Source of the DNA: Escherichia phage LF82-23
Strand: one strand, 5' to 3'
Sequence record: PV660458
Length of the DNA: 42,378 nt
Under the pieces are notes generated by a model, which was given only the letters and a program-made list of their open reading frames with translations, had not been told where the DNA came from and made no database searches. How positions within the stretch are numbered: the first letter of the stretch is position 1; each line of letters opens with the position of its first letter. Below are positions 5,092-42,378 of this stretch, in pieces. The position numbers and the translations under genes are program-made.

Positions 5092-5165
5092 TCATCACGT
5101 CGAAAGGCACTAGCCCAGTAGACAAGATTGAACGGTAACACTGCTCTTTAACAATCTGGAGTGTA

Positions 5166-5194: not shown

Positions 5195-5302
5195 GCTTCC
5201 ACGTCAGCCAGCAAGCTAAACAGTCATTGATAAAGACGTTAAAACACACGCAGGCAAACTGGTACGGGTTATTCATCTCAGAACGGGCGCTGAATAAAAC
5301 GG

Positions 5303-5331
5303 TTGACAGGATGAAACGAGTATGCTGTAAT
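5303..5331 (+). promoter_or_regulatory. sigma70-type early promoter P3
   Basis: TTGACA (5303-5308), 17-nt spacer, TGTAAT (5326-5331) with TGc extended -10. Confidence 0.7.
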
Positions 5332-5382
5332 ACGCTCCAGATTGACAGGGCAGCAAGCCAGTCAGTCAGAAGTAAAAAGTAG

Positions 5383-5411
5383 TTGACACGCTGAATACGA
5401 TGTGATGTAAT
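5383..5411 (+). promoter_or_regulatory. sigma70-type early promoter P4
   Basis: TTGACA (5383-5388), 17-nt spacer, TGTAAT (5406-5411) with TGa extended -10. Confidence 0.7.
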
Positions 5412-5843
5412 CAGCACCGAGTTGAAAGGTTGCAAAACAACCTGCTCTGAGTGAACGTAAACAGGCCACGTAGTGTCTCGGCCTCATGGGTATCCGGCGC
5501 AGCTAGGAACTGGTGAGGGCACCGCCGAAAGGCAATAGGGGTAGCGCCCGGTGCGATGGGAACGGAGAAGCGCGATAGACGCAGCGCAGTATCAGCACAA
5601 TCCCGAACGTCTTATAAGGCGCGGAGTGAAGCGGGTAGGTAGGCAAGCTGGTAACGGTGAGCCGGACTGCTGGAGGACTCCTGAGAGTGGATGCAGACAA
5701 TATCCACGGCGCGAAATGGGCGGGGCGATTTTTCAGGGTAGTGAATCCGACAAGCCAATCAATGCCAACGAGTGCAGACTGTACGGCGCGTCACAATGGG
5801 TTCACTATCCACCTGAAAATAGCCAACAACTGGAGAAATTAAT

Positions 5844-6233
5844 ATGTACCGTATCTATGCAAGCGCATATCGTCAGGGCAACGCTGAGTCAGTCAATCTG
5901 GCGCTTCATTGCAAGGCACTGCGAACGGTGCAGGACATGTTCGGAGTGGTTCCGGTCACACTGACAGGCAAGTTCGACAATGCGTATGAGTTAAGCATGG
6001 TCTTCCCTGTCGATGGAATCTACGAAATCCGACAGGCTGTTAAGCTGTTTTGTAAAGCCTTCGAACAGGACTGCATCATGGTAGTGACCAAAGACGACGA
6101 TGCAATCTTCATGGACTCACCGTATCCGGGTAAGCCTGCTGGCAAGCTGGTCAGCAAGACTAACGAGGAAATGGAAGCCGGGCAGCATACCGCTTGGACT
6201 TACGATGGTGAGCAATTTTGGGTAGTGGAGTAA
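5844..6233 (+). CDS. hypothetical early protein (129 aa)
   Basis: First ORF after promoter array and leader; GGAG 9 nt upstream of ATG. Confidence 0.6.
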   Translation: MYRIYASAYRQGNAESVNLALHCKALRTVQDMFGVVPVTLTGKFDNAYELSMVFPVDGIYEIRQAVKLFCKAFEQDCIMVVTKDDDAIFMDSPYPGKPAGKLVSKTNEEMEAGQHTAWTYDGEQFWVVE

Positions 6234-6244
6234 GGAGCATGACT

Positions 6245-6316
6245 ATGTTCACTGCACTGTGTGTTATTGCGGCGGCGTGTTGGGTTATTGACCAGCGCCT
6301 GCCTAAGCGAGCCTGA
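6245..6316 (+). CDS. tiny hydrophobic peptide (23 aa), candidate small membrane protein
   Basis: AAGGAG (6232-6237) 7 nt upstream of ATG 6245; peptide MFTALCVIAAACWVIDQRLPKRA; below the 60-aa floor of the ORF track. Confidence 0.3.
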   Translation: MFTALCVIAAACWVIDQRLPKRA

Positions 6317-6317
6317 T

Positions 6318-6401
6318 ATGTGGGACTTACTGGTAGCGTTATTCTGGTTCGTCTTTGCAGGCTTGTGGATTTACTGGCTGACTCGTCCCAAATTATGGTG
6401 A
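6318..6401 (+). CDS. tiny hydrophobic peptide (27 aa), candidate single-pass membrane protein
   Basis: ATG 1 nt after the stop of the preceding tiny ORF (possible coupling); peptide MWDLLVALFWFVFAGLWIYWLTRPKLW has an 18-residue hydrophobic core. Confidence 0.3.
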   Translation: MWDLLVALFWFVFAGLWIYWLTRPKLW

Positions 6402-6465
6402 CTGCCTAATGCGTCTTGCGAGGCGCATTGTGAAGTAACCAACCAACAACCCGACGAGGTGTATC

Positions 6466-6993
6466 ATGACTACTGTTAAATATACTGCATTCAAAGACGC
6501 TGCCGCTCTGGACAAGGCTATTGAGTCTACCGTCAAGAAGGCGCACTCACTCCGTAACGAGATTCAGAACGTTGCGGTCGGTATCATCCTGCACGCTTAC
6601 CATCACGGCGACTACACTCGTGCTGAATCCTTCGTGAATCAGCTCGGTCAGGGTGTCCGTGGCAAGGCGCTGGTAGACTGGTTCGTCAAGTTCGGCGGCC
6701 TGATTATCGGTGAGAACGGCGGTAAACAGGGCTTCATCGGCTGGCAGGGCGCTGAGTACATCAAGGCGAACATCGACACGGCCAAAGCCACCATGTGGTG
6801 GAGCATGAAGCCTGAGCAGGCGTTCGAAGGCTTCGACCTGCAAGATGCGCTCGAAAAGCTGATTGCCAAAGCTGAGAAGGCGCTGAACAAGGCCAATGAG
6901 CTGCGTCACGAAGGCAAGGACGAAGACGCGAACAAGGTAGTCGTGCCGCAGAACGTCCTCGACCTGCTGCGCAAGGCTAAACAGGCTGCCTAA
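6466..6993 (+). CDS. hypothetical early protein (175 aa)
   Basis: ORF with GAGGTG 6 nt upstream of ATG; preceded by hairpin AATGCG-N10-CGCATT (6408-6429). Confidence 0.6.
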   Translation: MTTVKYTAFKDAAALDKAIESTVKKAHSLRNEIQNVAVGIILHAYHHGDYTRAESFVNQLGQGVRGKALVDWFVKFGGLIIGENGGKQGFIGWQGAEYIKANIDTAKATMWWSMKPEQAFEGFDLQDALEKLIAKAEKALNKANELRHEGKDEDANKVVVPQNVLDLLRKAKQAA

Positions 6994-7007
6994 GCGGGAT
7001 TGACTCA

Positions 7008-7045
7008 AGCCAGTGTCACGGCGCTGGCTTTATGGCAATTCTGCC
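7008..7045 (+). promoter_or_regulatory. conserved early intergenic unit 1: hairpin (AGCCAG/CTGGCT) + GGCA-N4-TGCC element
   Basis: Stem 7008-7013/7024-7029; GGCAATTCTGCC 7034-7045; 34 nt from GGCA to ATG of next gene. Confidence 0.5.
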
Positions 7046-7067
7046 CCAACCATTTAGGAGCTTCACC

Positions 7068-7349
7068 ATGTCTATCAAAACTGTAACTGCTTTCATCACC
7101 AAACGCGACGGCGAACTGTACGGCTTCGCTGTGTCTCTGAACGAAGGCCAGTACCTGCACCATGTCCGTGAAGACGGCGAGCCGACTGAGGCTGCTGGTA
7201 TTCTGGAAACGCTGGCTGGTATCCCGCTGCCGCATGAGTTCATCATCATGCTGGCTGAGCAGGACGAAGACGAGCTGAAAGCGCGTCACGGTAGCGGCCT
7301 GACGCTGGAAGAAATCGGCACCTTCGAAGCCGAGGTTGACGACGAGTAA
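7068..7349 (+). CDS. small acidic early protein (93 aa)
   Basis: AGGAG 9 nt upstream; ORF-track start 7032 lies inside the conserved upstream element, so the downstream ATG was chosen; acidic C-terminus (EAEVDDE). Confidence 0.6.
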   Translation: MSIKTVTAFITKRDGELYGFAVSLNEGQYLHHVREDGEPTEAAGILETLAGIPLPHEFIIMLAEQDEDELKARHGSGLTLEEIGTFEAEVDDE

Positions 7350-11567: not shown

Positions 11568-12001
11568 AGCCAAAGTATAAAGTCGGGGATGAAATCGTAG
11601 GCGACGATGGCACTGGCACCCGGTCGGGTAAGCTGGGCATCATTGCGTGGGTTAACCCTGACCGCCGAGCGTGGGAGCGTAGCGGGGAGACTCGTTACAT
11701 CGTGAGCTGGATTGGTGAGCGCCTGAATGCGCAGCCGGATATCAGCCACTACAAATCTGATTGGCTGGAGGACAACACCAGTCTGGTCAGTACCCCGGCG
11801 CAGCAGCGCGGTCGGTTCATGTGCGTGGTCGAAGGTGGCAGCACGCCGCCGAAGGTTGAGCACATCACTGAACGTGAAGCGCGTGAAGAAGCTGAGCGAC
11901 TGGCCGAGCGCCACGGCGGTACTGTCCGTGTGCTGCAAGTTATTGCCAGCGTGAAGATGAAGAAGAAGATTCAGTACATACCGGACTGGGATAACGAATG
12001 A
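11561..12001 (+). CDS. hypothetical protein (146 aa), N-terminal KOW/SH3-like motif
   Basis: N-terminus YKVGDEIVGDDGTG resembles that of the ORF at 14362 (LKVGDRVINIDTRS). Confidence 0.5.
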   Translation: MVKPKYKVGDEIVGDDGTGTRSGKLGIIAWVNPDRRAWERSGETRYIVSWIGERLNAQPDISHYKSDWLEDNTSLVSTPAQQRGRFMCVVEGGSTPPKVEHITEREAREEAERLAERHGGTVRVLQVIASVKMKKKIQYIPDWDNE

Positions 12002-12708
12002 TGAAATCAGTGAGCAACGACGAGTGGCCGGAGCTGGCGAAGCGTCTGCCAGTAGGACAAAAGCGAAGGACGTTTCACAGTTGCTCCCGGTCATTCAGCA
12101 AGACCAACTTCGAGTACGGTCGTGCGCCGGATTACATCTGGTGCAAGTGCCACCGCTGTGGGTATAGCCGCAAGCATGACTTAACTCATGCAGTGTACGT
12201 GCCGCCAGCGGAGGTGCAAGTGAAGGTGCCAACTGATGTGGTGCCTATCACTGAGGTGATTGCCAAGCAGCCACGCTTGCTGCTGCCAGTGCTGGAGCGG
12301 GAGAACCTGATGCCGCACCTGTCTATCCTGACTGCAAGCCCAACGTATGGCAGGCTGTATCTGCCGGACGACACGGGCAGCTACTGCGGTCTGGATTATA
12401 CCGGGCGACAGTTCATCCCGTGGCGCTCGCCGCACAAGCATAGCTTGGCAATGAAGGTCAGCCCTCGTGGTAATGCTGAGACCAACTGCCTCTGGATTTA
12501 TGGTGAGGTGGGCGAGTATCTCCAGCAGGTACGCGACGGCGGCAACTGCGCGTTCGTTCCAAACGTGGACGACTCAACGTTGCAGGCGCTGGTCAGTGTG
12601 ACGCTGGCGTATGGATACAACCTCGTGGTTATCTGTCACCACCCAAGTGCTCAACGTATCCGCAGGGAACTGCGCGTGGTAGGGCGAGTGCAGATAGTAG
12701 GAGAATGA
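11998..12708 (+). CDS. zinc-ribbon protein, possible DNA primase domain
   Basis: Cys/His cluster HSCSRS...CKCHRCGY near N-terminus; position immediately upstream of helicase (primase position in T7-group genomes); TOPRIM motifs not confidently seen. Confidence 0.35.
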   Translation: MMKSVSNDEWPELAKRLPVGQKRRTFHSCSRSFSKTNFEYGRAPDYIWCKCHRCGYSRKHDLTHAVYVPPAEVQVKVPTDVVPITEVIAKQPRLLLPVLERENLMPHLSILTASPTYGRLYLPDDTGSYCGLDYTGRQFIPWRSPHKHSLAMKVSPRGNAETNCLWIYGEVGEYLQQVRDGGNCAFVPNVDDSTLQALVSVTLAYGYNLVVICHHPSAQRIRRELRVVGRVQIVGE

Positions 12709-13107
12709 ATGACACCTTGCATTGAGCACGGGCAGAAGGGTGATAAGTCTGGCTACGGTATGGCTAAGTATCGCGGCCAGTTCATGCGACTGCACCGCGC
12801 AGTATACTGCGAGCACAACGACACTGACCCGGCCAGCATCAAGGGCAAGGTGGTCATGCACCGTTGTGATAATCCACGCTGCATTAATCCAGAGCACCTG
12901 CTGCTGGGTACACATGCCGACAACATGCTGGACATGAGCCTCAAAGGTAGGCAGCCAAAGCCCAAGCTCACACCTGAGCTGGTGGCGCAGGCCGCTGAGC
13001 TGGAGTCGGCTGGCGTATCACAGCGTGAGATTAGCGAACGCCTCGGCGTGGCGCAGTCCACAATCAGTAGGGCATTGAGAAAGAGGACGTGGAAGCATGT
13101 TGGATAA
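12709..13107 (+). CDS. HNH endonuclease with C-terminal helix-turn-helix
   Basis: Motif HRCDNPRCINPEHLLLGTHADN (HNH) and C-terminal SQREISERLGVAQSTISRALRKR (HTH). Confidence 0.7.
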   Translation: MTPCIEHGQKGDKSGYGMAKYRGQFMRLHRAVYCEHNDTDPASIKGKVVMHRCDNPRCINPEHLLLGTHADNMLDMSLKGRQPKPKLTPELVAQAAELESAGVSQREISERLGVAQSTISRALRKRTWKHVG

Positions 13108-14362
13108 GTTGTTACTGTCTGTCATGAGGGAGCGGGGTAAGTATAACTCCTTACGCCACGCCATTCCTGATGACACCATGAGCCAGACGACCGGGTACAT
13201 GCTGCGTGCGTATGGTTCTTACTTCGATGCGTTCCCGGATTCAGACTACGTGGATTTGGAAACGCTTGGCACTCACGTAAGGTTAAAGACTGGCAGTACG
13301 CCGGAGCAGATGGGTGCGTTCGACTCACTGTGCTCACAGCTAAAGGAGTACAAGCCGACCAAGCAACAGATGGAAGGTATCATCGACCAACTGGTGGAGC
13401 TTGACACGGCAGGCCGAGTGAACCTGTTAGCACAGAGGTATGATAACGGTGAGGAAATTGATTTTATCTATGAGCTTGGCCGTCTGGCTGAGGGCGCACG
13501 CCGCAGTCGGGGTCAATCATCCGTTACCGATTACGTCGATGACGATGTTGTTGACATTATTAACCGCACTGATGATGACCAAGGTTTTAAGTTCGGTCTC
13601 ATGTGTCTGCAAGATAGCGTACGCGTACTGCTTCCCGGCGACTCCGTTGCAATCGCTGCCCGACCTGACAGTGGGAAGACCAGCTTCATCGCGTTTAACC
13701 TTACGCGAATGGCGGCGACAGCAGCGAAGCTCTATCCGGGCAGACCAATCCTGTGGTTCAACAACGAAGGGCAGGGCATCAACATCATCCCGCGCATCTA
13801 TCAGGCGGCGCTCAACTGTACGCTCCCGGAACTGAAAGAGCTGGGTGAGGACAGGGGCAAGCTGCACGCTGCGTATGCCAAAGCACTGGGTGCGCCAGCC
13901 AATGTGATTCGTGTTAAGGATATGCACGGCGCGACGCTGGCGAAAGCTGAGCAGGTTATCGAAGCGATGAACCCGTGCATCGTGGTGTGGGATATGCTTG
14001 CCAACTTCAAGCTGTCTGTGTCTGACCCGTCGAGCAACAAGGCGAGTCAGGTCGAGCAGCTATGGCAGGAGGTACGTGAGCTGGCAGTGCGTCACAACTT
14101 TGTGTCGCTGGCTACGGTTCAGGTATCGGCTGACGGTGCCGACGATATGTTCCCGGCGCTCGACGCATTGAAGGATTCCAAGACTGGTATCCAAGGGGCG
14201 ACTGATGTTATCGTGATGCTCGGCAGCGTGGATGACCCATCGCTGGCGGCGCGGCGCGGTGTCAGTACGCCGAAGAACAAACGCCAGATTGCTGGGCGTC
14301 CAAGCAACGTGCGGTCACAGGTACACTTCTTTGCTGACCGCTGCCAATACGAGGATATGTAA
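13097..14362 (+). CDS. replicative DNA helicase (T7 gp4 helicase-domain / DnaB-like)
   Basis: Walker A AARPDSGKTSF; size and position before DNA polymerase. Confidence 0.65.
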   Translation: MLDKLLLSVMRERGKYNSLRHAIPDDTMSQTTGYMLRAYGSYFDAFPDSDYVDLETLGTHVRLKTGSTPEQMGAFDSLCSQLKEYKPTKQQMEGIIDQLVELDTAGRVNLLAQRYDNGEEIDFIYELGRLAEGARRSRGQSSVTDYVDDDVVDIINRTDDDQGFKFGLMCLQDSVRVLLPGDSVAIAARPDSGKTSFIAFNLTRMAATAAKLYPGRPILWFNNEGQGINIIPRIYQAALNCTLPELKELGEDRGKLHAAYAKALGAPANVIRVKDMHGATLAKAEQVIEAMNPCIVVWDMLANFKLSVSDPSSNKASQVEQLWQEVRELAVRHNFVSLATVQVSADGADDMFPALDALKDSKTGIQGATDVIVMLGSVDDPSLAARRGVSTPKNKRQIAGRPSNVRSQVHFFADRCQYEDM

Positions 14363-14726: not shown

Positions 14727-14918
14727 ATGGAAGAACGCACGTATCGAGCAGCACCTCTGAACCAACGAGAGCAGACCATCATCCGGGCGCAGTACCGGAA
14801 GGGTGATTCGTTCCGTGGTGCTGAGGCATTGGCTGAGCGATTCAATGTGCCGCCTGCTGATGTGGTGGCAGTGGTGAACTTCACTTACCGTAAGGGGAAA
14901 CAGAAGCATGACAAGTAA
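14727..14918 (+). CDS. hypothetical protein (63 aa)
   Basis: AAAGGAG 6 nt upstream of ATG 14727. Confidence 0.5.
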   Translation: MEERTYRAAPLNQREQTIIRAQYRKGDSFRGAEALAERFNVPPADVVAVVNFTYRKGKQKHDK

Positions 14919-15591
14919 TGCCGAAGTCAAGCGCGTGTGGGCAGAGGATATCTGCCGTCTGCTGCAATCCGAAGAACTGAACTTCGTGGTTGCCGGGGGA
15001 GGGGCAAGGGATACCGCGCTGGGTGTTGAGCCGAAGGACTACGACATTGTGGTCTTCGGTTGGGGCGGCGACCTGAGCCGTGTGGCTGGCCGACTGGACT
15101 GGCTGGACTCCAGACTGGAGGACTATGCCGAGCAGCACGGGCTGGCGTATGAGTACATGCCGAGCTATCACGATGCGGCAGAGGGTGGCGACTTTGGTTC
15201 CCGACTGTACGGGGTGTTCAAGATTGGCCCGGTCGATATCATCATCAGTAAGTGTGGCTGCTGGTCACAGGTGCTGAATGAGTTTGACTTCAACCTGAAC
15301 CAGTTCTACTTCCCGTCCAGCATCCCTCGCTACTCCGGCCAGTACAGCCGTGACCCCGGTGAGTTCATGGCTTATCCGTACGAGCCGAACCTGACCGCCG
15401 CCGATGTGCAGTGGTATCCGGCGCTGGCCAGTCTGGTTGAAAGCTACGACGACCTGCTGACTCTCCGTGTCTGCCGACCGGATGCAAGCCTGAGTCGTTA
15501 TGCCTACATGCTGGAGAAGCACGAGCGGCTGCTGCCGTCCATTCAGGAGTACGTGAACAATAAGCCTGACCACTTAGGTGGCCAAGCATAG
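14908..15591 (+). CDS. Pol-beta superfamily nucleotidyltransferase, CCA-adding/poly(A) polymerase head-domain-like (minimal, 227 aa)
   Basis: Motif NFVVAGGGARDTALGVEPKDYDIVVFG matches the class-II tRNA nucleotidyltransferase signature GGxVRDxxLGxxxKDxD (compare E. coli CCA enzyme [25 protein letters not shown], from memory). Confidence 0.6.
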   Translation: MTSNAEVKRVWAEDICRLLQSEELNFVVAGGGARDTALGVEPKDYDIVVFGWGGDLSRVAGRLDWLDSRLEDYAEQHGLAYEYMPSYHDAAEGGDFGSRLYGVFKIGPVDIIISKCGCWSQVLNEFDFNLNQFYFPSSIPRYSGQYSRDPGEFMAYPYEPNLTAADVQWYPALASLVESYDDLLTLRVCRPDASLSRYAYMLEKHERLLPSIQEYVNNKPDHLGGQA

Positions 15592-15601
15592 CGGAGGACT
15601 G

Positions 15602-18067
15602 ATGGCAATTAGAGCACAGGTGATTGACGTTGAGACCGAGAACCATGAGTGGTATGGGGAGCTGGCATCGCCGCGCTGCCCGGATAACTATGTGGTTATG
15701 CAGGGTCAGCGTGACTGTGTGCTGACCAAGGATGGCTGGGTGTTCTACGAGCGCGAGGAATATCGGTACAGTTCGAGGGAGGATTGGTTGCAGAACAAGA
15801 GCCTGCACCTACATCCCGACACGAACATTCTGGTAGCCCACAACGCGCCGTATGAATTGAGCTGGTGGTTCGAGCATTACGGTGACGAGTTCATTGCCTT
15901 CCTCAAACGAGGTGGCCGTGTATTCTGTACCGCGTATGCTGAGTATCTGCTGACGCATCAACAATCCCAGTACCCATCCTTGAACGAGACAGCACCGAAG
16001 TATGGCGGTACTCACAAGGTGGATGCAGTCAAGGCGATGTGGGAGTCAGGCTACCTGACCAGCCAGATTGACCCTGAGCTGCTGAGCGAGTATCTGTCCG
16101 GGCCGTCCGGCGATATTGAGAACACGACCAAGCTGTTCGTTGGTCAGTGGGCAGAGCTGACGAAGCAGGGTATGTTGCCGATGGCACTGACCCGGTTCGA
16201 GGGTATGCTCATGTGGGCGTACATGATGCACGCTGGTCTGCATGTTGACCGCGAGGTTGCCGAGCGCAACCGCCGTGAGTTGCAGGATGCAATCAGTGGG
16301 CTGACTGATACACTGCTGAGTTACCTGCCAGCCGACATGCCGAAGGAGGCGCGTGAGCAGTTCAAGTTCACGTCAGCTTATCACATGAGCGCGTTCGTGT
16401 TCGGCGGCGTGATGAAGTACAAGGCGCGAGTCGAGCGCCGGGATGGGGATGGCAATCTCATTTACGTGAAGGTGGATGCGCCACTGTTCAAGCGAGGCAA
16501 GGACAAGTGGGTCAAGCATACCAGTGAGTGTGAGTGGGATGACGAGACCGGGCTATGGTATGACCCGGTTGAGAAGGTACACCAGACCATCTACTCCAGC
16601 GGGAAGAACAAGGGTGCGCCTAAGTTCGAGAAGCTGGCGACGGATGAAGTGGATACCAAGTGGGGTGAGGTGCTGTTCCGTATGCCGGGCCTCCTGCGTG
16701 TGCAGGATAAACGAGCGAAGGAGATTGCAGACAACCTCGAATGGGAAGACCCGAAGCGACCGGGTGAATACCTGCGGCGCACGGGTGACTGGGTTGGTAA
16801 GCGCAGGCTTGCCGATGGCAGTCCGGTATTCAGTACGGCGGGTGAGGTGCTGGACATTCTGGCAGCTCGTAAGATTCCCGGCGTGGTGGAGATTGCCGAC
16901 CGAGCCAAGGCACAGAAAGACCTCGGCACTTACTACCTGAGCGAGACGTTCGATGAAGAAGGGAACGTGACTGGCCAGTCGGGGATGATGCAGTTCATCC
17001 AGCCGGACAGTATCGTACACCACACCATCAACATGACCGCGACGGAGACGACGCGCTTATCATCGGCGCGACCTAACAGTCAGAACTTGCCACGTAAAGG
17101 TACGAGTAAAGTTAAGCAGATGTTCACCTCACGCTTTGGTGAGGGTGGCCGCATCGTTGAGGCTGACTACTCGGCACTGGAAGTGGTGGGGCTGGCCGGG
17201 TTCAGCAAGGATAAGAACCTGATTCGTGCATTGCTCGACGGTATCGACATGCACTGTATGCGTCTGTCAGCTCAGCTCAACGAGCCATACGAGGACGTGC
17301 TTAAGAAGTGCAAGGATGAATCCCATCCTGACCATGCACGATACAGTCAGATGCGTACTGACATTAAGCCGAAGGCGTTCTCATATCAGTATGGTGCAAC
17401 AGCGCGAGGCATTGCGTACTCGACTGGTTGCTCTGAGGAAGAAGCTCAAGCGTTCATCGACAACGAGAAGGGTCTGTTCCCGGAAGTTGAAGAATGGTTC
17501 GACTCGGTTATCTTCCCAGCCGTAGAGAAAAGTGGACAGAGCAATGTGTTCAAGGAGCAGGACGAGAACGGACGGTGGCAGGTGTATCGCCGTGGTCACT
17601 TCCGGTCGCCGGGTGGAACTTGTTATTCATTCCGTCAGTATGAGAAATGGAACAAGGCGGCGCGTGCTCACCTGATGGAATACAAACCAACTCAGATGCG
17701 TAACTATCCGATTCAGGGTGAGACCGCATTTTGGGTACAGGGAATCGGTGGCCTGCTGTTCCGCTGGCTGCTATCGAACGACTTCTTTGGTGGGCGTGTG
17801 GTTCCCATCAACCAAGTGCATGACGCATTCTATTTCGACATTGCACCTGACTGCCCCCACGAGTTCTTCGTTGGACTCAAGGCAATCATGGAAAGCATCC
17901 CGGAATACTACAACCACGTATGGCCAGAGTATAACCTGACAGTGCCGTTCCCGGCAGAGGTGGAAGCAGGGCCAAGCATGTACGAGAAGCACCACGTAGA
18001 GACGACAGCCGATGAAGTGCTGGAGTTTAAGAGACAATTCCTGACGAGTAAGGGTATCGCATTATGA
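15602..18067 (+). CDS. DNA polymerase, family A (T7 gp5-like)
   Basis: Motif A DYSALEVV, motif B RTDIKPKAFSYQYGA, motif C VHDAFYF; N-terminal exonuclease D-x-E (DVETE). Start chosen at ATG 15602 (GGAGG 4 nt upstream); ORF track begins at GTG 15578. Confidence 0.85.
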   Translation: MAIRAQVIDVETENHEWYGELASPRCPDNYVVMQGQRDCVLTKDGWVFYEREEYRYSSREDWLQNKSLHLHPDTNILVAHNAPYELSWWFEHYGDEFIAFLKRGGRVFCTAYAEYLLTHQQSQYPSLNETAPKYGGTHKVDAVKAMWESGYLTSQIDPELLSEYLSGPSGDIENTTKLFVGQWAELTKQGMLPMALTRFEGMLMWAYMMHAGLHVDREVAERNRRELQDAISGLTDTLLSYLPADMPKEAREQFKFTSAYHMSAFVFGGVMKYKARVERRDGDGNLIYVKVDAPLFKRGKDKWVKHTSECEWDDETGLWYDPVEKVHQTIYSSGKNKGAPKFEKLATDEVDTKWGEVLFRMPGLLRVQDKRAKEIADNLEWEDPKRPGEYLRRTGDWVGKRRLADGSPVFSTAGEVLDILAARKIPGVVEIADRAKAQKDLGTYYLSETFDEEGNVTGQSGMMQFIQPDSIVHHTINMTATETTRLSSARPNSQNLPRKGTSKVKQMFTSRFGEGGRIVEADYSALEVVGLAGFSKDKNLIRALLDGIDMHCMRLSAQLNEPYEDVLKKCKDESHPDHARYSQMRTDIKPKAFSYQYGATARGIAYSTGCSEEEAQAFIDNEKGLFPEVEEWFDSVIFPAVEKSGQSNVFKEQDENGRWQVYRRGHFRSPGGTCYSFRQYEKWNKAARAHLMEYKPTQMRNYPIQGETAFWVQGIGGLLFRWLLSNDFFGGRVVPINQVHDAFYFDIAPDCPHEFFVGLKAIMESIPEYYNHVWPEYNLTVPFPAEVEAGPSMYEKHHVETTADEVLEFKRQFLTSKGIAL

Positions 18068-20127: not shown

Positions 20128-20434
20128 CGAACCGATGGTAGACCTCAAGCTCATGGTTGTTGACCACGACCATGTGAGTGGGGAGATTCGCGGTGTCATC
20201 TGCCGCTGGTGTAATGCTCAGCTCGGCAAGGTAGAGAACTCTGCCAACCGAGCGAAGCGCCAGCGCACAGTTGACGACTGGCTGGACAGCGCCATCGAGT
20301 GGCGACGTAAGCAACACACTGGTCTGATGTACCCAACGCACAAGACCGAGGCAGAGAAGAAAGCGGCGACAGCCGAGAGACGTAAGAAGGCGGCAGCCGC
20401 GAAAGCGCGAGCCTTAATCACTAAGGGGAAATGA
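20102..20434 (+). CDS. endonuclease VII-family (Holliday-junction resolvase-like) protein
   Basis: Motif CPCPLC...VVDHDHVSGEIRGVICRWCNAQLG; start chosen at ATG 20102 (GGAAG upstream); the ORF extends upstream to 20042, overlapping the exonuclease. Confidence 0.65.
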   Translation: MGCPCPLCNEPMVDLKLMVVDHDHVSGEIRGVICRWCNAQLGKVENSANRAKRQRTVDDWLDSAIEWRRKQHTGLMYPTHKTEAEKKAATAERRKKAAAAKARALITKGK

Positions 20435-21558
20435 TGACCAAGTTAACTAATCACCAACTCAAAGAAGACATTGCCGAAGGGCTTGGCACCAAGGCCATTG
20501 CTGAGAAGCACGACATGACCGAGAGCGCCATTCGATACCGGAAGCGCCAGCTTGCCAAGAGCGGCTGGAGTCCTGAGCACGACATGACGAAGGAGGTGCC
20601 GGAGCCGTATGCGGTGAAGGGTACGTCCACGCTGTACGATAAGGACGGCAACGTTGTCATGCAGTGGGTGAAGACAGCACTCGACCGTGAGCAGGAGCTG
20701 GCGCTGCTGCAAGAAGCTGTCGATGCTATTAGCGAGAGCATCACCCCGGAAGCTGCCCGACCGTACGCCGGGGGCGCGGCACCTGCTGAGCTGCTGAACC
20801 TGTTCGTGCTGACTGACTACCACCTCGGTATGCTGGCATGGGCAGAGGAAACTGGTGACGACTGGGATATGAAGATTGCGGAAGACCTGCTGGTTAAGTG
20901 GTTCTCGGCAGCGATTGCCAGTGCGCCGCCAGCACAGGTTGCCATCTTCGGCCAGCTCGGTGACTTCCTGCACTGGGATGGGTTGGATGCAGTAACGCCA
21001 TCGAGTGGTCATGTGCTTGATGCTGACACGAGATTCCAGAAGCTGGTGCGTGTGGCTATCCGGGCGCAGCGCCGCATCATTGGTATGCTGCTGGATAAGT
21101 TCCCGCAGGTTCACGTGGTGTGTGCCGAGGGCAACCACGACATGGCCAGCTCAATCTGGATGCGCGAGCTGCTGCATGTCCTGTACGCCGACGAGCCGCG
21201 TGTCACCGTTGACCGCAGCCCTGACCCGTACTACTGCTATGAGCATGGCGAGACGGCGCTGTTCTTCCACCATGGTCACAAGCGTAAGGCAGAACAACTG
21301 GAGACTGTACTGGTCGCCAAGTTCCGCGAAGTGTATGGCCGAACCAAACATGCGTATGCACACGTTGGCCACCTGCATCACAAGAAGGTACTGGAGTCTG
21401 GTGTCATGGTTGTCGAGCAGCACCGCACGCTGGCGGCGAAGGATGCCTATGCCTCTCGTGGTGGTTGGCTGAGTGAGCGCAGCGCGAGCGTGATTACTTA
21501 TCATGCCCGGTACGGTGAGGTCGCACGATTCACCATTAGCCCGGAGATGTTAGAGTGA
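20431..21558 (+). CDS. calcineurin-like metallophosphoesterase with N-terminal HTH domain
   Basis: Ordered motifs TDYH, GDFLHWDG, GNHD, HHGH, GHLH fit the metallophosphatase signature D-x-H / GD / GNHD / H / GH-x-H; N-terminal KAIAEKHDMTESAIRYRKRQL looks HTH-like. Confidence 0.65.
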   Translation: MMTKLTNHQLKEDIAEGLGTKAIAEKHDMTESAIRYRKRQLAKSGWSPEHDMTKEVPEPYAVKGTSTLYDKDGNVVMQWVKTALDREQELALLQEAVDAISESITPEAARPYAGGAAPAELLNLFVLTDYHLGMLAWAEETGDDWDMKIAEDLLVKWFSAAIASAPPAQVAIFGQLGDFLHWDGLDAVTPSSGHVLDADTRFQKLVRVAIRAQRRIIGMLLDKFPQVHVVCAEGNHDMASSIWMRELLHVLYADEPRVTVDRSPDPYYCYEHGETALFFHHGHKRKAEQLETVLVAKFREVYGRTKHAYAHVGHLHHKKVLESGVMVVEQHRTLAAKDAYASRGGWLSERSASVITYHARYGEVARFTISPEMLE

Positions 21559-21779
21559 CGAGAACACTGTACCAAGAAGATGTGGTGCAGCTCAAAGAGG
21601 ATGGCCTTTCCATTGAGTGGGAGGCCAACACTCAGGTCGAGCTGTATAAGGATGGCACCGTCTGCATTTCGCAGGACGGTGAGGAAGTCTGGTTGCCTTG
21701 GGCATATGTCCGGGATATTATTTTCGCTCTTGAGGAAGCACACGATGCACATGAAAGACACCGTAGTAGTAGACCTTGA
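21555..21779 (+). CDS. hypothetical protein (74 aa), GTG start
   Basis: GTG overlapping upstream stop (GTGA) with GGAG 10 nt upstream; overlaps next gene by about 35 nt; uncertain. Confidence 0.35.
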   Translation: MTRTLYQEDVVQLKEDGLSIEWEANTQVELYKDGTVCISQDGEEVWLPWAYVRDIIFALEEAHDAHERHRSSRP

Positions 21780-22272
21780 CGGCACGCTGGCTGATGGCCG
21801 TTGGCGTTTACACCTGCTGCCTCCACCGGAGCGTCGGCACCTTGATGAAGCGTGGGCCGAGTTCAACTTGGCTGGCGCTGACGACCCTGCGTTTCAGGAC
21901 ACGATTGATATTGTGAACGCTCTGGCCCTCACGTATCGCATTATCATCCTGACCGGACGCGGAGCCGTGGCCCGTGAAGTAACCGAGCAGTGGCTTGACG
22001 AAGCTGGTGTGGTTTACGACAAGCTAATCATGAGAGAGATTGGCGACTGCCGTAAGGACACGGAGATGAAGCTGGCGGCGCTGGAGGATATCGGCATCGA
22101 GAACATCGTCTGTGCTTTCGATGACCTGCCCCACATCGTGGACTTTATGCGTGGCCTCGGCATCACGGTTTATGAAGTGACCCGGTATGAGGACAATCAC
22201 GAGTATGTTCACGCAAATGCTAAATACGATGGCGCTGATTCTAAGGTCGATGGAGGTAAGGCGAATGGGTAA
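21745..22272 (+). CDS. HAD-superfamily phosphatase (DxDGT motif)
   Basis: N-terminal VVVDLDGTLADG (HAD motif I); GAGGAAG 6 nt upstream of ATG 21745; ORF-track start 21580 rejected. Confidence 0.6.
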   Translation: MHMKDTVVVDLDGTLADGRWRLHLLPPPERRHLDEAWAEFNLAGADDPAFQDTIDIVNALALTYRIIILTGRGAVAREVTEQWLDEAGVVYDKLIMREIGDCRKDTEMKLAALEDIGIENIVCAFDDLPHIVDFMRGLGITVYEVTRYEDNHEYVHANAKYDGADSKVDGGKANG

Positions 22273-22843
22273 GAAAGGTCAGAAGTTTATCTTAGACCCG
22301 ACACGCAACTGGGGCACTGGTACGCTGCTGAGCGACATTGCTGAGCAAGGTATCATCCTGACGTATGACGAGCCGTACGATGTGCCGAACGACAGCCGTG
22401 ACTACTACACCTGCGTCAAGGATGGCACGACCCACCTGCTGGTGTTGGAACCCTACGAAGTGAAGGAGGTTGAAATGTCCTTTATCCCGAACGACCCGTA
22501 TGACCCTTCCAGTGATGTTGAGGTGGCCGTGGTCAAGAGCGCCGGGCCGGGCGGTATGAAGTTCGACGGCGGCAAGCCCCGCATGTCTCTGCTGTTCGAC
22601 GGCTGCCCAAATGCACTGGAGGCTGTGGCCAGCGTGCTGACCTTCGGCGCTGAGAAGTATGCAGCTCACTCGTGGCAGACTGTACCGGAAGGTGAGGAAC
22701 GCTACAAGTCAGCATTGCTCCGGCACCTGACGGCGGTGGGCAAGGGTGAGGAACTGGATAGCGAATCCAACCTGCATCATCTGGCGCACGCCGCGTGCAA
22801 TGCGCTGTTCATTCTGGAACTCGAATTAAGGAAACGTAAATGA
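22265..22843 (+). CDS. hypothetical protein, possible all-alpha NTP pyrophosphohydrolase (MazG-like / dATP-dGTP diphosphohydrolase-like) domain
   Basis: C-terminal KFDGGKPRMSLL...FGAEKYAAHSW...LLRHL...GEELDSESNLHHLAHAACNALFILE resembles that family as I recall it; GGAGG 8 nt upstream of ATG 22265. Confidence 0.35.
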   Translation: MGKKGQKFILDPTRNWGTGTLLSDIAEQGIILTYDEPYDVPNDSRDYYTCVKDGTTHLLVLEPYEVKEVEMSFIPNDPYDPSSDVEVAVVKSAGPGGMKFDGGKPRMSLLFDGCPNALEAVASVLTFGAEKYAAHSWQTVPEGEERYKSALLRHLTAVGKGEELDSESNLHHLAHAACNALFILELELRKRK

Positions 22844-23154
22844 GTCGTTATCAAAGAGCCGTTGACGACACGGTGGTTGACCATAAGGTGTGCGGTGCCT
22901 GCCACGGCAGCGGCACCTACCGTGGCATGTTGATTGGTGGGCAGGTAGTCCTGATGGATTGCGAAGCCTGCGGCGGTACGGGTACTAATGACCCGGCACT
23001 GCAACATTCTGTACTGAGTGACTTAGGCCAGCGCGTACAAGCGCAGCCGGGATATGACGAGCCAAGCAAGCCATCGTATGGTGTGGGTATCGTCGAGCAA
23101 TACGCCGAAGACGGCAAGCTGATTGAGCACCTGAGCAAACAAGTTAAGGAGTAG
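22840..23154 (+). CDS. zinc-ribbon protein with DnaJ-like CxxCxGxG repeats (104 aa)
   Basis: CGACHGSG and CEACGGTG motifs; ATGA overlap with upstream gene. Confidence 0.5.
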   Translation: MSRYQRAVDDTVVDHKVCGACHGSGTYRGMLIGGQVVLMDCEACGGTGTNDPALQHSVLSDLGQRVQAQPGYDEPSKPSYGVGIVEQYAEDGKLIEHLSKQVKE

Positions 23155-23156
23155 TC

Positions 23157-25589
23157 GTGGATTTACTTGCAGAGCAGATTCGACTTGAAGAAGAAGCGCG
23201 AGCCAGACACCGCGAGGGCTGGCTGGATAATATCAAAGAGGCGATGGCCAGTGGCCGCGCCGGGTCGGTGCCGTTGCTCCAGCGTATGATGGTTGAGGCT
23301 TATCCTCTGGTCGAAGCTGCGATGCAAGAAACCCTGAACGAAACGACCCGTGGGTATGGTGCGCAGTACCGGACGTACATGCGTGAGATTGGCACCAAAG
23401 CGTGTGCCTCTCTCGCACTGAGCATGGCGGTGTCCGGTGCTGCGTCGGAGCAGGCGGTACTCAGCCTGCTCAAGAGCATGGGCAAGGCACTGATGGCTGA
23501 GGTGGTGTACCTCCGGGCGAAGCAGACCGGGCCACAGCAGGCGGCGTACATGGAGCGCGTTAAGCAGGATGTGAAGAAGTCTCGCTCGAAGTCAGCGAAC
23601 CACGTCTACAACAAAGCGCGTGCGTCGGCGGCGAACGTTGGGGTGGAGATTGATGTGCTGCCGCAGCGTGCGCTGATTACCATTGGCAAGCTGATGATGA
23701 AGTGCGTCGAGCCAACTGGTCTGGTGTCCACGATTCGCGTCGGCGGCAACCAGCGGCAGCGCGGTACGGCACACTTTGCACTGCATGAGGATGTGCTGGC
23801 TACGATGAACGACTGGCTGGACATGCCGCGTGCTGATGGCATGTGCTGCCCACCGCTGATTATCCCGCCGAAGCAGATTGCGCCGAACGGTCGCAGCGGT
23901 ATGTGGCATTCGGATGGGCAGGCGGCGATGTACCGGGTCATGAGTCGCATGAACCACAAAGGGTATCGTGCGTTGAACGTTGACCCGACCCCCGTTATAG
24001 AGCCGTGTATGATGCTCAGCAGCGTTCCGTACCGAGTTAACCCAATGGTACTGGAGTTCCTGCGAACGAACCGTACAGGCGTTATGGGGCTGCCTGTGCC
24101 GCCTCGTGAGCCTACACTTCCGTTTACCATCCCCGCTGGTGTGAGCTTCGCGCAGTACATCAGCAAGTTCCCACCAGAGATGCAGCAGCAGATGGACGCT
24201 GAGGCTCATGAGTACAAGGTGAAGACTCGCTTGTATTACAATGAGTTGCGTAAGTTCACATCGCAGATGCTGGCGCTGAACGGTGCAGTCAAAGAAGCAG
24301 ACAGGTACGCCCAGTATGATAGGATTTATCTCCCGACTTACGCCGATACGCGGGGCCGAATTTATTATTCTTCGACCCTTAACCCTCAGTCTATCGACGC
24401 GGTGCGAGCGCTGCTCGAACTTGCTGAACCAGTGGCTCTCGGAAGTGAGGGGCTGTTCTGGCTCAAGGTTCATGTTGCGAATTGCTTCGGCTACGACGCA
24501 ACCGACTTCGATGACCGGGCGGCGTGGACGGACAAAACACTCCCCCGACTACGTGAGGCGTGCCGTCTTCCAGAGGCATTTGATTCGTTCTGGTCAGAGG
24601 CCGATAGCCCTATCTCAGCGTGGGCTGCATCTGTTGAACTCATTCGAGCTATCGACAGCGGAAGTCCTGAGACTTATCCCTGCCGAGTGGTTACGCAATG
24701 GGATGCTACATGTTCAGGTCTCCAACACCTCAGCGCAATGCTACGAGATGAAGTTGGGGGTGCTGCTGTCAATCTTATCAATAGCGTGGGGCGAAAGGCA
24801 GACATATATCTCAAGACGGCAGCAGCGGCGATGCAGGCTCTTGAAGATAGTGAAGCGCAGTCACCGACGCAGATGGGTACGTGGCTTGTTTCAATCGGCA
24901 TTGTACGGGCGATGGCTAAGAAACCAGTGATGACGTACGTGTACGGGGCAACCCGGCACGGGATGGTGGACTACTACTGCCTGTACCTGCGTGAGAACCG
25001 GGTCAAGCTACCGGACGGCAAGAGCCTGCTGGAGTGTGCGCAGTTCATCGCAGAGTTCATGTGGAATGCAATCCCTCGCGTTGTGCCGAAGGCGGCAGAG
25101 CTGATGGCGTGGTTGCAGGCTATCGCGGTGGAGGCGGCAGCCAACGGCGAGTACGTGGAAATCATTGCACCGTCAGGGTTGCGGGTGGTTAACCTGTACC
25201 AAGCTAGCAAGGAGACGATGCTCAACAACATCAACCTCATGGGTATCCACAGCATTAAGCTGCGCGAGTATCTGGACAAGCCGGACGGCAGGAAGTGTGC
25301 CGCTGCGATTGCTCCGAATTTCGTACACGCCATGGATGCCAGCCACATGATGAAGGTGCTGTGGGAGATGTGGAATAACGGGGTGTACATGGTATCCATC
25401 CACGATTCGTTCGGGGTGGCGGCTGCACATGCCGGGCTACTTCACAAGGTCATTCGTGAAAAGTTCGTGCAGATGTACGAGCAACATGACCCAATTCAAC
25501 AACTTGCTGTACGATACAATGCTGTTGCACCTGAACGTGGCAATCTGGATATCCAGCTTGTGAAACAATCAAGCAAGTTTTTCTGCTAA
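23157..25589 (+). CDS. single-subunit DNA-directed RNA polymerase (T7-like)
   Basis: [25 protein letters not shown] and VSIHDSFG match T7 RNAP catalytic segments ([20 protein letters not shown], HDSFG); GTG start with AAGGAG 5 nt upstream. Confidence 0.9.
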   Translation: [810 protein letters not shown]

Positions 25590-25593
25590 TAAA

Positions 25594-25645
25594 TAGTGAT
25601 ATGTATCATTGACTTAAATGAAAGTGTCTATAGTGATATGTATCA
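25594..25645 (+). promoter_or_regulatory. repeat cluster downstream of RNAP gene: TAGTGATATGTATCA x2 flanking conserved 16-mer ATGAAAGTGTCTATAG (candidate phage promoter / origin)
   Basis: Direct repeats at 25594-25608 and 25631-25645; 16-mer at 25618-25633; location corresponds to the promoter/origin region after gene 1 in T7. Confidence 0.4.
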
Positions 25646-25699
25646 CGCTACCGGTAGCCCCGTCAGTGGCGGGGGTTACTGCCACTCAGAGAGGATTGT

Positions 25700-25885
25700 A
25701 TGGGTAGAGAATCTCCACTTGAAAGAGTTCAGTTCACTAAAGCTCAGTTAGCTCTACTGGAAAAGCACTTCGGTACATGGTCTCAGGTAGGTAAGACTGT
25801 CACCCCCGACACTAACCTACCTCTGATTAACAGAGAAGCTGGTAAGCAAGACGTTCTGGATTTCATCAGAGAAAGAGTGATTTGA
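25700..25885 (+). CDS. hypothetical protein (61 aa)
   Basis: GAGAGGA 6 nt upstream of ATG. Confidence 0.5.
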   Translation: MGRESPLERVQFTKAQLALLEKHFGTWSQVGKTVTPDTNLPLINREAGKQDVLDFIRERVI

Positions 25886-25886
25886 A

Positions 25887-26306
25887 ATGAAAGTGTCTAC
25901 TATGGGAAATACATCACACACGACGATGCCACTCGACATTCGCCGTGCTGTGGCCGAAGGCATTCAAGCTGAGCGGCCATGGTCAGACCTATCTCCCGAT
26001 GTGATTGTTGACAGCATGTACGAGGCCACCGCCTCCGGTTGTGTTGACGTTTACATCACTGACGATGACGGCAGCCTCATGGCTGTTGCTCACATCGGCA
26101 GGTTATTCGATATTCATGTGGGTGAGATGGTGGTCGTTATGGCCTCATACGTCTGGCCCCAGTACAGAAACCGTGGAGTGATGCGTGCCATCCTCCGTGT
26201 ACTCAAAGACGTGGCCCGTTCTGCGGGTGTACGTTGGTGCGGTTACTCCCATATGGTGCGGCCTTACGTTCAGGAGTACCGCTTCATTGATTTGGAGAAA
26301 CCGTAA
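25887..26306 (+). CDS. hypothetical protein (139 aa); weak acyltransferase-like resemblance
   Basis: Start overlaps third copy of the conserved motif (ATGAAAGTGTCTACTA); segment YRNRGVMRAILRVL only loosely GNAT-like; start uncertain. Confidence 0.4.
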   Translation: MKVSTMGNTSHTTMPLDIRRAVAEGIQAERPWSDLSPDVIVDSMYEATASGCVDVYITDDDGSLMAVAHIGRLFDIHVGEMVVVMASYVWPQYRNRGVMRAILRVLKDVARSAGVRWCGYSHMVRPYVQEYRFIDLEKP

Positions 26307-39800: not shown

Positions 39801-39984
39801 CCTTGACCGCGCTTACGGTGTGGCGGGTGCAGCTACCAGTGCTGCTGGTGGCGTGCTGACTGGCGATACTGAGCAGGCAGTGTCTGGCGCTCGCAAAGCG
39901 GCAGGCAACATCATCCAAGCTATCCCACTCATTTCAATCGTGCCGGGAGTCCGAGCACTCAACGAAGCAGTTAAGGGTGAATAA
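36877..39984 (+). CDS. internal virion protein C (gp16-like)
   Basis: 1035-aa ORF at the gp16 position; ATGA overlap with the preceding gene. Confidence 0.6.
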   Translation: MIITQESLDKFMAPKQGANAPTLVIPAPVKTADLSTPLQDATRQGAVEQFDKMQELEATPMATALSASVKNWDTTQLFDAAINKPVFQADPNFHPNEALQNVQFPVGEDDRKFLFKSKSMDEFNWRTQQLQEMRERTQLAHTAPVMNAVLQFADPLYLATDLLSMGAGTALKLGRLGTAAVGAASTAATMTAVGNEARPVSQNEIIFAAALHGAATTAFYRPAPVQRSLADLSPEEFAAEMQRRNGIDPNNPPQFDPNNAMSPMAMSLGFGGRGATVVDEVPESIRAAAQRGLDLARRGEQTNPKRPFLEWSLFKSFSQHSDEASALAGRLLDDPLNPNMTSAAAIQRETQARFGVLLNQYEDTLRNALSTDGWTNIRRFRDPVGYRRAQQEFEAAVRLELDKRMIDKEFRGANEKVAAAADRLGEYSRAVGRELETKGMVEPGFVDKNPYYYPRRMNVTKIEQAEQLLGKKPFMKQMTTAVQRGIGTDRPTANVIAHAMVERARRKGYGVDNSGMIINKEGRDELLEIIENSKGLDEAAKARASALLRESGSDAGRPSMLKSRINIDMMHTLGPNLQVRDLFDDSITSMMDSYNRRITGRLALHEAGLGTDAERVAAREALAKSIKDGTARRQALAQYDNIMAYYQGAPVGEEMPQFMRQLSALTQATGLAASGLWQLVEYGTMMQRFGAVNTFRAMMRTIPEARALFKQMRVSTKEGRQLALDAEEALTAAVASDIRMRPIMQHYDDMFSADKSPWVMRLEHARDATMFINMQKYIHFHQTRTNAALVMQTLRKAAEGDAKAIAAMKTYGANDALLSDIRKQVGTHGTKPDAWDEGVFNRSRIVMMNAMDDAIVRARVGELPAFAEFSTLGKFLFTFRRFVAATHNKTLVGTWNREGARGMATLMAYQYPLAMMATAANNVISGKAFSDPDTMAPNKLAGQALNYLGAIGFASEFTGVLTGQQRSFGAPGLLFLDRAYGVAGAATSAAGGVLTGDTEQAVSGARKAAGNIIQAIPLISIVPGVRALNEAVKGE

Positions 39985-42368
39985 TGGCGAACAGCTATAA
40001 CGCTTACGTGGCAAACGGAACGCAGACCGCGTTCCTTGTCACCTTTGAGCAACGCGTGTTCACTGAGATTCAGGTGTACCTCAACTCCGAACTCCAGACG
40101 AGCGGGTACACCTACAACTCTGTGACCAAACAGATTATCTTCGACACCGCCCCGCTCGCCGGGGTGATTGTCCGACTCCAACGTTACACCTCTGAGGTTC
40201 TACTGAACAAGTTCGGCCAAGACGCTGCCTTCACTGGGCAGAACCTTGACGAGAACTTCGAGCAGATTCTGTTCAAGGCCGAGGAAACTCAGGAAGCATG
40301 GCTCGCGCCGCTTGACCGCGCCGTCCGTGTTCCAAACTCTGAGGTCTCTATCAACGCATTACCGAACGTCGCTGGCCGCCGCAACAAGGCATTGGGCTTT
40401 GACAGCAATGGCCAGCCGTTCATGATTCCTCTGGTCGATATCCCGGACTCCGCTCTGGCGATTGCTCTGGCAATGGCTGACGGCGGTAAGTGGATTGGTA
40501 CTCTTGGTGGTGGCACGTTCCTCGACCGTCAGGATACCGTATGCCTGTCCGAGTTCACCAACAATACCGGGTACGCTTCTACCGCCGCTGCGGTGCAGGC
40601 TTGCTTCGATTATGCCAAGGCCAACAACAAAGTTGTTGATGCCCGTGGCTGGGAAGGTACTGTCAGCTCCACTGTCCTGATGGACGGTATTGAGGTTGTC
40701 GGTGGTACGTGGAATGGTACAGCAGACATTCGACTGCTGAACGCCACGTTCCGCAACTTCTCTGCGTCAAAGGTTCGTGTCTGCTACTGGGGCGGCAATG
40801 TACGCATTGCTGACTACGAGTTCACCGACCACCCATCGGCATCGAAAGTTGCCAGTATTCTGTTCCAAGGCAACATCGCCGGGGGCAGCTACGTCATTGA
40901 GAACGGCGTACACCGCAATGGCTACTTCGGTATTCTCCAGCAAGGTACTGGCGAAACCATTGACAACGGTGTGATTCGCAACATCGCGCTCATGGATATG
41001 GCTGGTGACGGTATTGAGATGAACGTAATCAACAAGCACTATGATGGTGGCCTGTCGATTGAGAACATCTACCTCGAAAATATCAACGGTATCAACCCAA
41101 CCTCCAACCCATCCTTCGTATCCAACTGGGGTATCGGGATTGGTCTGGCTGGTCAAGGGCCGTTTGGCTGGGATGCTGCTGAAACCCAATACGCGAAGAA
41201 CATCACAGTCCGTGGTGTTCATGCTCCGCGCGGCGTGCGACAAGTCATCCACTTCGAGGTGGCCAAGAACTGTTCAGTGTATGACGTACACGCCAACCCT
41301 GACCTGACTGTTTCCAACGGTACGGGCCTGACCGCCGCTGGTGTTATCACCTACGGCTGCAAGGACATGGTTATTGACGGGGTGTACGGTGAGCCTATCG
41401 TCGGCACCACAGGCACTGACCCGGCTGCTGTTCGTCTGGTGATGTGTGAGTGGGGTGCTAACCAAGCGGGTGCAGGTGGTGTGCCGGGTGCATCTAACCC
41501 GTCATTCAACATGACGCTGCGCAACATCTACACCAAGACCGGGCGTGTCTACGCTGGTGTTGGCTCCGATGATGTGAACACCAACGTATACCACCTTGAG
41601 AACATCCACTGCTACCGTCTGAGCCTCTTTGGTGTGGCAACCCTCCTGAACATGACCAACGTGACGGGTGTTGACTTCGACTGCGTAGGCGATGACTCCA
41701 GCGGCGGTACGTCCTCTAATGGTGTGTACCCGCGACGCAAGACCTGCCTGAACATGGTGAACGTGAACTTCTATGGGCCGGGCATGACAGAGGGTGCGCT
41801 GTACAGTAAGGCTCGCTACACGGATATCAGTACTCTGAACTCCAACGTGCGTGCTATTCCGTACTCCAACATCCAAGGTAACGTTGGCGTTATCCTGTCT
41901 CCGGTCAACCGTATGTACACGCTACCAAACGACCTTGCGACACTGACTGGCGGGGAGTTCCCAACTGGTAGGGAGTTCTGCGAGGGTACGGTACTGTTCA
42001 AGACCGATGGCTCCGGTGGCAACTTCATAGTTACCAAGTTCGGTGCCTACATTCCCAATGACGGCAACAACTTCAAGGTGCGTGCTGCTGCCGCTGGCCA
42101 GACTTATCTGGAGCAGAACCTGACTCCGGCTGGTACTCAGGCTTCTACCTCGTGGCTGTACCATAAGCCAATCTCTGCTGGTACTCGACTGAACATTCCG
42201 GGTGCCGGGCCGGGCGGCGATACGCTCACTGTGACGGTGGTGCGTGCTCCGTATCAGGTGGACAACAACATCGGAAACCCGGTGCGCATCGACATTACCC
42301 CGGCCATTGTGACGGCAATCCCTGCGGGAACGCAGCTCGCCGCTACCTACCCGGTGGCCTACATCTAA
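39984..42368 (+). CDS. tail fibre/tailspike with T7 gp17-like N-terminal anchor and beta-helix (polysaccharide depolymerase-like) domain
   Basis: N-terminus AFLVTFEQRVFTEIQVYLN...FTGQNLDENFEQI follows the T7 gp17 adaptor pattern; central region shows periodic N/G/I/V-rich repeats typical of right-handed beta-helix (pectate-lyase-like) tailspikes. Confidence 0.7.
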   Translation: MANSYNAYVANGTQTAFLVTFEQRVFTEIQVYLNSELQTSGYTYNSVTKQIIFDTAPLAGVIVRLQRYTSEVLLNKFGQDAAFTGQNLDENFEQILFKAEETQEAWLAPLDRAVRVPNSEVSINALPNVAGRRNKALGFDSNGQPFMIPLVDIPDSALAIALAMADGGKWIGTLGGGTFLDRQDTVCLSEFTNNTGYASTAAAVQACFDYAKANNKVVDARGWEGTVSSTVLMDGIEVVGGTWNGTADIRLLNATFRNFSASKVRVCYWGGNVRIADYEFTDHPSASKVASILFQGNIAGGSYVIENGVHRNGYFGILQQGTGETIDNGVIRNIALMDMAGDGIEMNVINKHYDGGLSIENIYLENINGINPTSNPSFVSNWGIGIGLAGQGPFGWDAAETQYAKNITVRGVHAPRGVRQVIHFEVAKNCSVYDVHANPDLTVSNGTGLTAAGVITYGCKDMVIDGVYGEPIVGTTGTDPAAVRLVMCEWGANQAGAGGVPGASNPSFNMTLRNIYTKTGRVYAGVGSDDVNTNVYHLENIHCYRLSLFGVATLLNMTNVTGVDFDCVGDDSSGGTSSNGVYPRRKTCLNMVNVNFYGPGMTEGALYSKARYTDISTLNSNVRAIPYSNIQGNVGVILSPVNRMYTLPNDLATLTGGEFPTGREFCEGTVLFKTDGSGGNFIVTKFGAYIPNDGNNFKVRAAAAGQTYLEQNLTPAGTQASTSWLYHKPISAGTRLNIPGAGPGGDTLTVTVVRAPYQVDNNIGNPVRIDITPAIVTAIPAGTQLAATYPVAYI

Positions 42369-42378
42369 GGAGAAACCC

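Follow-up and report, generated by a model that had tools for sequence, protein, structure and literature searches.

A GTG codon shared by a Bonnellvirus sub-clade is the probable translation start of the T7-type RNA polymerase gene in Escherichia phage LF82-23

GUG is a canonical start codon in E. coli, where it opens about 14% of genes, and in reporter assays the canonical starts work at 10-100% of the AUG level with methionine as the first residue (bioRxiv 10.1101/063800). Phages related to LF82-23 are found in a Danish wastewater coliphage collection (PMC7552041). In five Bonnellvirus phages, namely megetsur (MN850608), mellemsur (MN850570), HHU8 (PQ641135), aldrigsur (MN850592) and altidsur (MN850568), the RNA polymerase (RNAP) gene has the start context aaggagTAGt(c/t)GTG, which is the same as that in LF82-23. 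Their RNAP is also 810 aa long and 99-100% identical to that of LF82-23 over the N-terminal 200 aa, and the genes share 93.0-96.5% nucleotide identity, so that LF82-23 is a different isolate with no difference at the start site. Other Bonnellvirus and Waewaevirus phages (J8-65, smaasur, Lidtsur, Kc261, usur, glasur, forsur, RZ4, ROV85 and LIMEzero) carry an orthologous RNAP gene at the same genome position, behind a small zinc-finger gene, and encode the same N-terminal peptide; in contrast to LF82-23, they start at ATG, some with a tandem ATGATG, their Shine-Dalgarno (SD) sequence is shorter (ACGGAG, AAGGGG or GAGG), and their upstream gene is without a C-terminal extension of about 25 aa. 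T7 RNA polymerase (PDB 1aro, 1cez and others) belongs to the same fold family, with the motifs D(A/G)(T/S)CSG(L/I)QH and HDSFG conserved, but has about 30 more residues at its N-terminus than the LF82-23 enzyme. The RNAP gene lies early in T7, whereas in LF82-23 it lies late in the early/middle region, and the start codon of T7 gene 1 is ATG.

We analysed the 42,378-nt stretch of LF82-23 (sequence record PV660458), referred to here as the window, and found a Bonnellvirus-like genome (Autographiviridae) with all genes on the + strand. When the RNAP region was compared by megablast, it showed 96% identity to Escherichia phage megetsur and its relatives, 86-92% to other Bonnellvirus, and about 73% to smaasur (species Bonnellvirus J865) and Pantoea phage LIMEzero, while the start region of the DNA polymerase gene is 95% identical to megetsur, which is classified in Bonnellvirus. 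Additionally, 52 of 54 megetsur proteins were matched in LF82-23 in the same order save for the permuted start, with m9 and m10 sharing one open reading frame (ORF). Nucleotide similarity, taken as regional identities, and the collinear order with megetsur thus place LF82-23 within Bonnellvirus. The record is a full-length genome in permuted form, opening with the ATG of the small-terminase gene. The AAGGAG of the small-terminase gene lies at the far end, at 42367-42372, and the join 42367-42378/1-3 matches contiguous megetsur sequence.

The RNAP gene (23157..25589, + strand) encodes a single-subunit, T7-type DNA-dependent RNA polymerase of 810 aa, as seen from its Pfam and T7 RNAP matches. 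The catalytic domain identifies the product as T7-type, with residues 428-786 matching the Pfam profile RNA_pol (PF00940) at E = 5.5e-83 and 279.7 bits, above the curated cut-off of 22. The N-terminal profile RPOL_N (PF14700) matches residues 7-183 at E = 8.2e-6 and 25.9 bits, below its cut-off of 30.1. Using phmmer, T7 RNAP structures were matched at an E-value of about 1e-57, in an alignment that pairs residues 6-781 of the query with residues 35-843 of T7 RNAP. A ten-residue query segment and IHDSFG align with the T7 motifs that hold the catalytic aspartates D537 (DGSCSGIQH) and D812 (HDSFG). Because the T7 alignment begins at query residue 6 and the RPOL_N profile at residue 7, the first 29 residues of the product appear from these alignments to belong to the conserved N-terminal domain.

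Directly upstream lies the gene of a small CxxCxGxG zinc-finger protein of 104 aa (22840..23154, + strand), whose 3' end carries the ribosome-binding site of the RNAP gene. The protein has two CxxCxGxG motifs and resembles the DnaJ central domain weakly (E = 2.5e-4, under the profile's cut-off). It is homologous to proteins of 77-88 aa that precede the RNAP gene and are conserved there in all relatives examined. In LIMEzero, the homologue is annotated as 'anti-termination protein Q-like'.

Next, we examined the anatomy of the RNAP start site. The region reads ...caagttAAGGAGTAGTCGTGgat..., given also as ...caagttAAGGAGTAGTCGTGgatttactt..., in the LF82-23 sequence. The SD hexamer AAGGAG (23146-23151, + strand) coincides with the final two sense codons of the upstream gene, AAG GAG (K E), and together with the preceding T it gives UAAGGAG (23145-23151), a 7-bp match to the 3' end of 16S rRNA. 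The stop codon of the upstream gene, TAG (23152-23154, + strand), lies inside the 5-nt spacer (23152-23156) that separates the hexamer from the RNAP initiation codon GTG (23157-23159, + strand), and ends 2 nt before it. In the RNAP frame, a TAA (23145-23147) stands upstream of GTG 23157 and is followed by GGA GTA GTC, none of which are start codons, so that GTG 23157 is the first ATG, GTG or TTG downstream of an in-frame stop and the earliest possible start of the gene. The first-pass annotation had suggested an RNAP start at this GTG, five nucleotides behind a perfect AAGGAG; the coordinates are exact, and the comparison of 22 genomes described below agrees. It had also described the frame as being without an ATG for 28 codons, which is borne out, as codons 2-29 contain none and the first in-frame ATG (23244-23246, + strand) is codon 30.

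Upon examining the strength of this signal, we found a predicted SD/anti-SD duplex with ACCUCCUUA of -8.7 kcal/mol, ranking 12th among the 52 gene starts of LF82-23. AAGGAG occurs 25 times on both strands of the window, against 15.1 +/- 3.6 expected, and the chance of finding it 4-9 nt ahead of a given codon is roughly 0.3%. Of its 19 occurrences on the + strand, four lie 5-7 nt before accepted starts, namely 2746, 14727, 23157 and position 1, the last of these reached across the permuted ends. Folding the 80-nt initiation region gave a structure with no stability beyond that of shuffled sequence (z = +0.69), as was also seen in two relatives that start at ATG; a role of RNA structure in masking or freeing the RNAP start was therefore rejected, no structural device being found. 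Furthermore, the 2 nt that separate the upstream gene from the RNAP gene, and their immediate surroundings, hold no promoter-like or terminator-like site. Across 21500-25950 such sites stay at background level, with 3 promoter-like ones where 2.7 were expected and 4 terminator-like ones where 2.6 were expected, and a promoter or terminator separating the two genes was rejected. On inspection of the sequence, no slippery motif for a frameshift fusion of the upstream protein with RNAP was apparent in AAGGAGTAG.

We then compared the start site across 22 genomes, consisting of LF82-23 and 21 others drawn from GenBank phages and IMG/VR contigs. At the same codon, GTG is present in 11 of the 22 (LF82-23 counted) and ATG in the other 11, the outgroups included. 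The ten other GTG genomes, among them megetsur, mellemsur, HHU8, BHUENT7, Ec1-ASingh, SS-2025, IMG/VR 2751185941, aldrigsur and altidsur, all have the context aaggagTAGt(c/t)GTG in common with LF82-23. The ATG group is made up of forsur, Kc261, usur, RZ4, glasur, ROV85, smaasur, J8-65, Lidtsur, IMG/VR 2228664000, and LIMEzero with its IMG/VR relative, and in these last two the RNAP N-terminus has one extra residue. In GenBank, the records of megetsur, mellemsur, HHU8, aldrigsur and altidsur place the CDS start at the codon corresponding to GTG 23157; these annotations come from automatic gene callers and do not count as independent experimental support.

A 24-residue peptide encoded between GTG and codon 30 is nearly invariant in Bonnellvirus, where most of the variation is synonymous, and recognisable in LIMEzero. 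Across 16 aligned genomes, the variable positions within codons 2-30 are distributed as 26 third, 11 first and 6 second positions, and this third-position excess indicates that the stretch is translated and under purifying selection. Two further searches had a narrower reach. The tblastn matches to Drulisvirus and Vibrio phages begin at query residue 26-28 and are uninformative on the first 25 residues, and an alignment-based IMG/VR scan for more RNAP start codons returned only the six known loci. The first-pass annotation had pointed to an alignment of homologs as one check, in which a conserved N-terminus beginning at a downstream methionine would speak against the GTG. The alignment revealed the opposite, with ATG at the position of the GTG in 11 relatives, codons 2-29 conserved and codon 30 not. 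Taken with the SD complementary to the 16S rRNA 3' end, the codons that follow and the orthologous starts in relatives make it very probable, from sequence comparison, that translation of the T7-type RNAP genuinely begins at GTG 23157.

To place the codon in its evolutionary setting, a neighbour-joining tree of the RNAP gene was built with the start codon excluded. All GTG genomes fall into one derived clade, and the sisters and outgroups are all ATG, so that the tree reads as a single ATG to GTG change in the ancestor of a Bonnellvirus sub-clade, kept since. The RNAP genes of this clade are down to 93% identical to one another. AAGGAG is kept in 11/11 genomes of the clade, whereas the ATG-start relatives have a weaker ACGGAG, AAGGGG, GGGAG or GAGG, the nearest of them ACGGAG. 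Additionally, the upstream protein is longer by about 25 aa at its C-terminus in the GTG clade, and three junction changes fall on one branch: ATG to GTG, ACGGAG to AAGGAG, and the extension of the upstream protein.

The association of GTG with a longer SD is suggestive of compensation but, since all three changes lie on one branch and represent a single evolutionary event, it carries no statistical weight as evidence for it. A stronger reading of the same three changes is that the GTG start, the C-to-A change in the SD and the upstream extension of about 25 codons together form a tuned translational-coupling junction that sets RNAP dosage against that of the upstream protein. We regard this as unlikely; if true, phage RNAP expression would have been retuned in this lineage, as opposed to a start codon drifting neutrally. 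The RNAP GTG start is an ordinary lineage-specific variant, already in the public annotation of relatives.

Initiator fMet-tRNA decodes GUG as methionine, and a stop codon 2 nt ahead of a start permits coupling through termination and reinitiation. In the mechanism we propose, UAAGGAG would pair with the anti-Shine-Dalgarno end of 16S rRNA and position the 30S subunit, whereby the GUG, 5 nt downstream of the SD, would come to lie in the P site and be read as methionine by the initiator tRNA. Ribosomes that end the upstream gene could then re-initiate on the RNAP gene. The junction is compatible with such translational coupling of the two genes, a reading that is taken from geometry only. We infer that the net effect of the GTG would be at most a modest adjustment of RNAP output, with no distinct regulatory device. 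Canonical GUG initiation in E. coli uses the same GUG and SD at a 5-nt spacing, and we found nothing that distinguishes the LF82-23 site from it.

A second reading of the codon 30 ATG is dual use, in which GTG 23157 would give the full-length RNAP and, in this lineage, ATG 23244 would yield a minor isoform cut short at the N-terminus. LF82-23 and the GTG clade do have an in-frame ATG with GAGG close by, and a weaker GTG start could let some ribosomes load downstream; however, the internal ATG is missing in many relatives, so that there is no conserved truncated isoform, the 2-nt spacing of the GAGG is poor, and the truncated RNAP would be without a conserved N-terminal helix. What speaks for such an isoform comes down to the presence of codon 30, and we consider it very improbable.

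Slightly less probable still is that RNAP starts at ATG 23244 itself, with the 29 codons upstream forming an untranslated leader that is open by accident. ATG is the commoner start in LF82-23, found at 49 of 52 accepted gene starts, and GAGG lies just upstream of this one. Against a start at Met30, however, the GAGG, which is the only SD-like element available to ATG 23244, ends 2 nt before the codon, a poor spacing, and the stretch ahead of it aligns to T7 RNAP from residue 35. Among relatives, codon 30 is ATG, TTG, ATA or TTA, and in 9 of the 16 aligned genomes (LF82-23 counted) it is TTG, TTA or ATA; since it varies between M, L and I, it is not a conserved start. The coding-type third-position variation across codons 2-29 and the 11 relatives with ATG at the position of GTG 23157 also argue against it, and Met30 was rejected as the RNAP start for its lack of conservation, the coding-type variation upstream and the poor SD spacing. 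The GTG lies one base off the ATG of sister phages, as it would if it came from an error in sequencing or assembly or from a recent and deleterious mutation of an ATG, but it is present in ten other genomes, deposited from Denmark, India and other sources, which effectively refute this reading, and its persistence across RNAP genes that differ by up to 7% excludes sequencing error.

With GTG 23157 as the preferred start, the RNAP CDS should be annotated as 23157..25589, and constructs for cloning or expressing the enzyme should take Met-Asp-Leu-Leu, and not Met30, as its N-terminus. The case is a further example of ATG/GTG start switching among close phage relatives.

The DNA polymerase gene showed the reverse situation. 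It encodes a family A DNA polymerase (15602..18067, + strand; Pfam DNA_pol_A, E = 1.3e-30), with ATG at 15602-15604 and GGAGG as its SD at 15593-15597 (+ strand), while the mechanical ORF 15578..18067 opens at a GTG (15578-15580, + strand). The first-pass annotation had reported both the extension to GTG 15578 and the ATG with GGAGG at 15602; the coordinates are right, and relatives use the aligned ATG. The 3' end of the upstream gene (14908..15591, stop TAG 15589-15591) contains GTG 15578, and no SD-like sequence precedes this codon in LF82-23. In 9/9 annotated relatives examined, the DNA polymerase starts at the aligned position, with ATG in eight and GTG in Lidtsur, and the N-termini opened by ATG read MAIRAQ..., MRVQ... 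or MPRF.... Furthermore, altidsur has an in-frame TGA directly before the DNA polymerase ATG, which closes the upstream extension. GTG 15578 was rejected as the DNA polymerase start on the altidsur TGA, the missing SD and the nine relatives, and, judged from these alignments, the true start is ATG 15602. The CDS should thus be given as 15602..18067, the longest-ORF rule being right for RNAP and wrong for DNA polymerase. In Lidtsur (NC_048177), the DNA polymerase is annotated with GTG at position 379 (VRVQIIDVETEN...), with GGAGTGG ahead of it, and the DNA polymerases of other bonnellviruses, which use ATG, are longer by three or four residues at the N-terminus.

When start codons were transferred to LF82-23 from the megetsur annotation, we obtained 49 ATG and 3 GTG, the latter at 23157, at 21555 and at a doubtful 6634. 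Apart from that of RNAP, the one credible GTG start of LF82-23 is that at 21555, where a 74-aa ORF (+ strand) opens in a GTGA that also holds the stop codon of the preceding gene (20431-21558); this start is conserved in megetsur. Between the endolysin and SAMase genes, 4328-5843 (about 1.5 kb) received no gene from megetsur, where 39943-41463 is likewise unannotated; this stretch probably holds the genome ends and putative early promoters.

Finally, ATG and GTG have also been exchanged at the start of the helicase gene, a second case within this phage group. The orthologous start codon is ATG in LF82-23 (13097, + strand) and GTG in megetsur (6058), with N-termini MLDKLLL and VLDKLLL, respectively. 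A 132-aa ORF (12709-13107, + strand) with HNH_3 endonuclease and helix-turn-helix matches (Pfam E = 6e-8 and 6e-7) separates the primase gene of LF82-23 (11998-12708) from its helicase gene (13097-14362). As the megetsur counterparts are adjacent (5346-6056 and 6058-7323), this ORF looks like a homing-endonuclease insertion specific to LF82-23, and owing to the HNH insertion the sequence upstream of the helicase is entirely different between the two phages.
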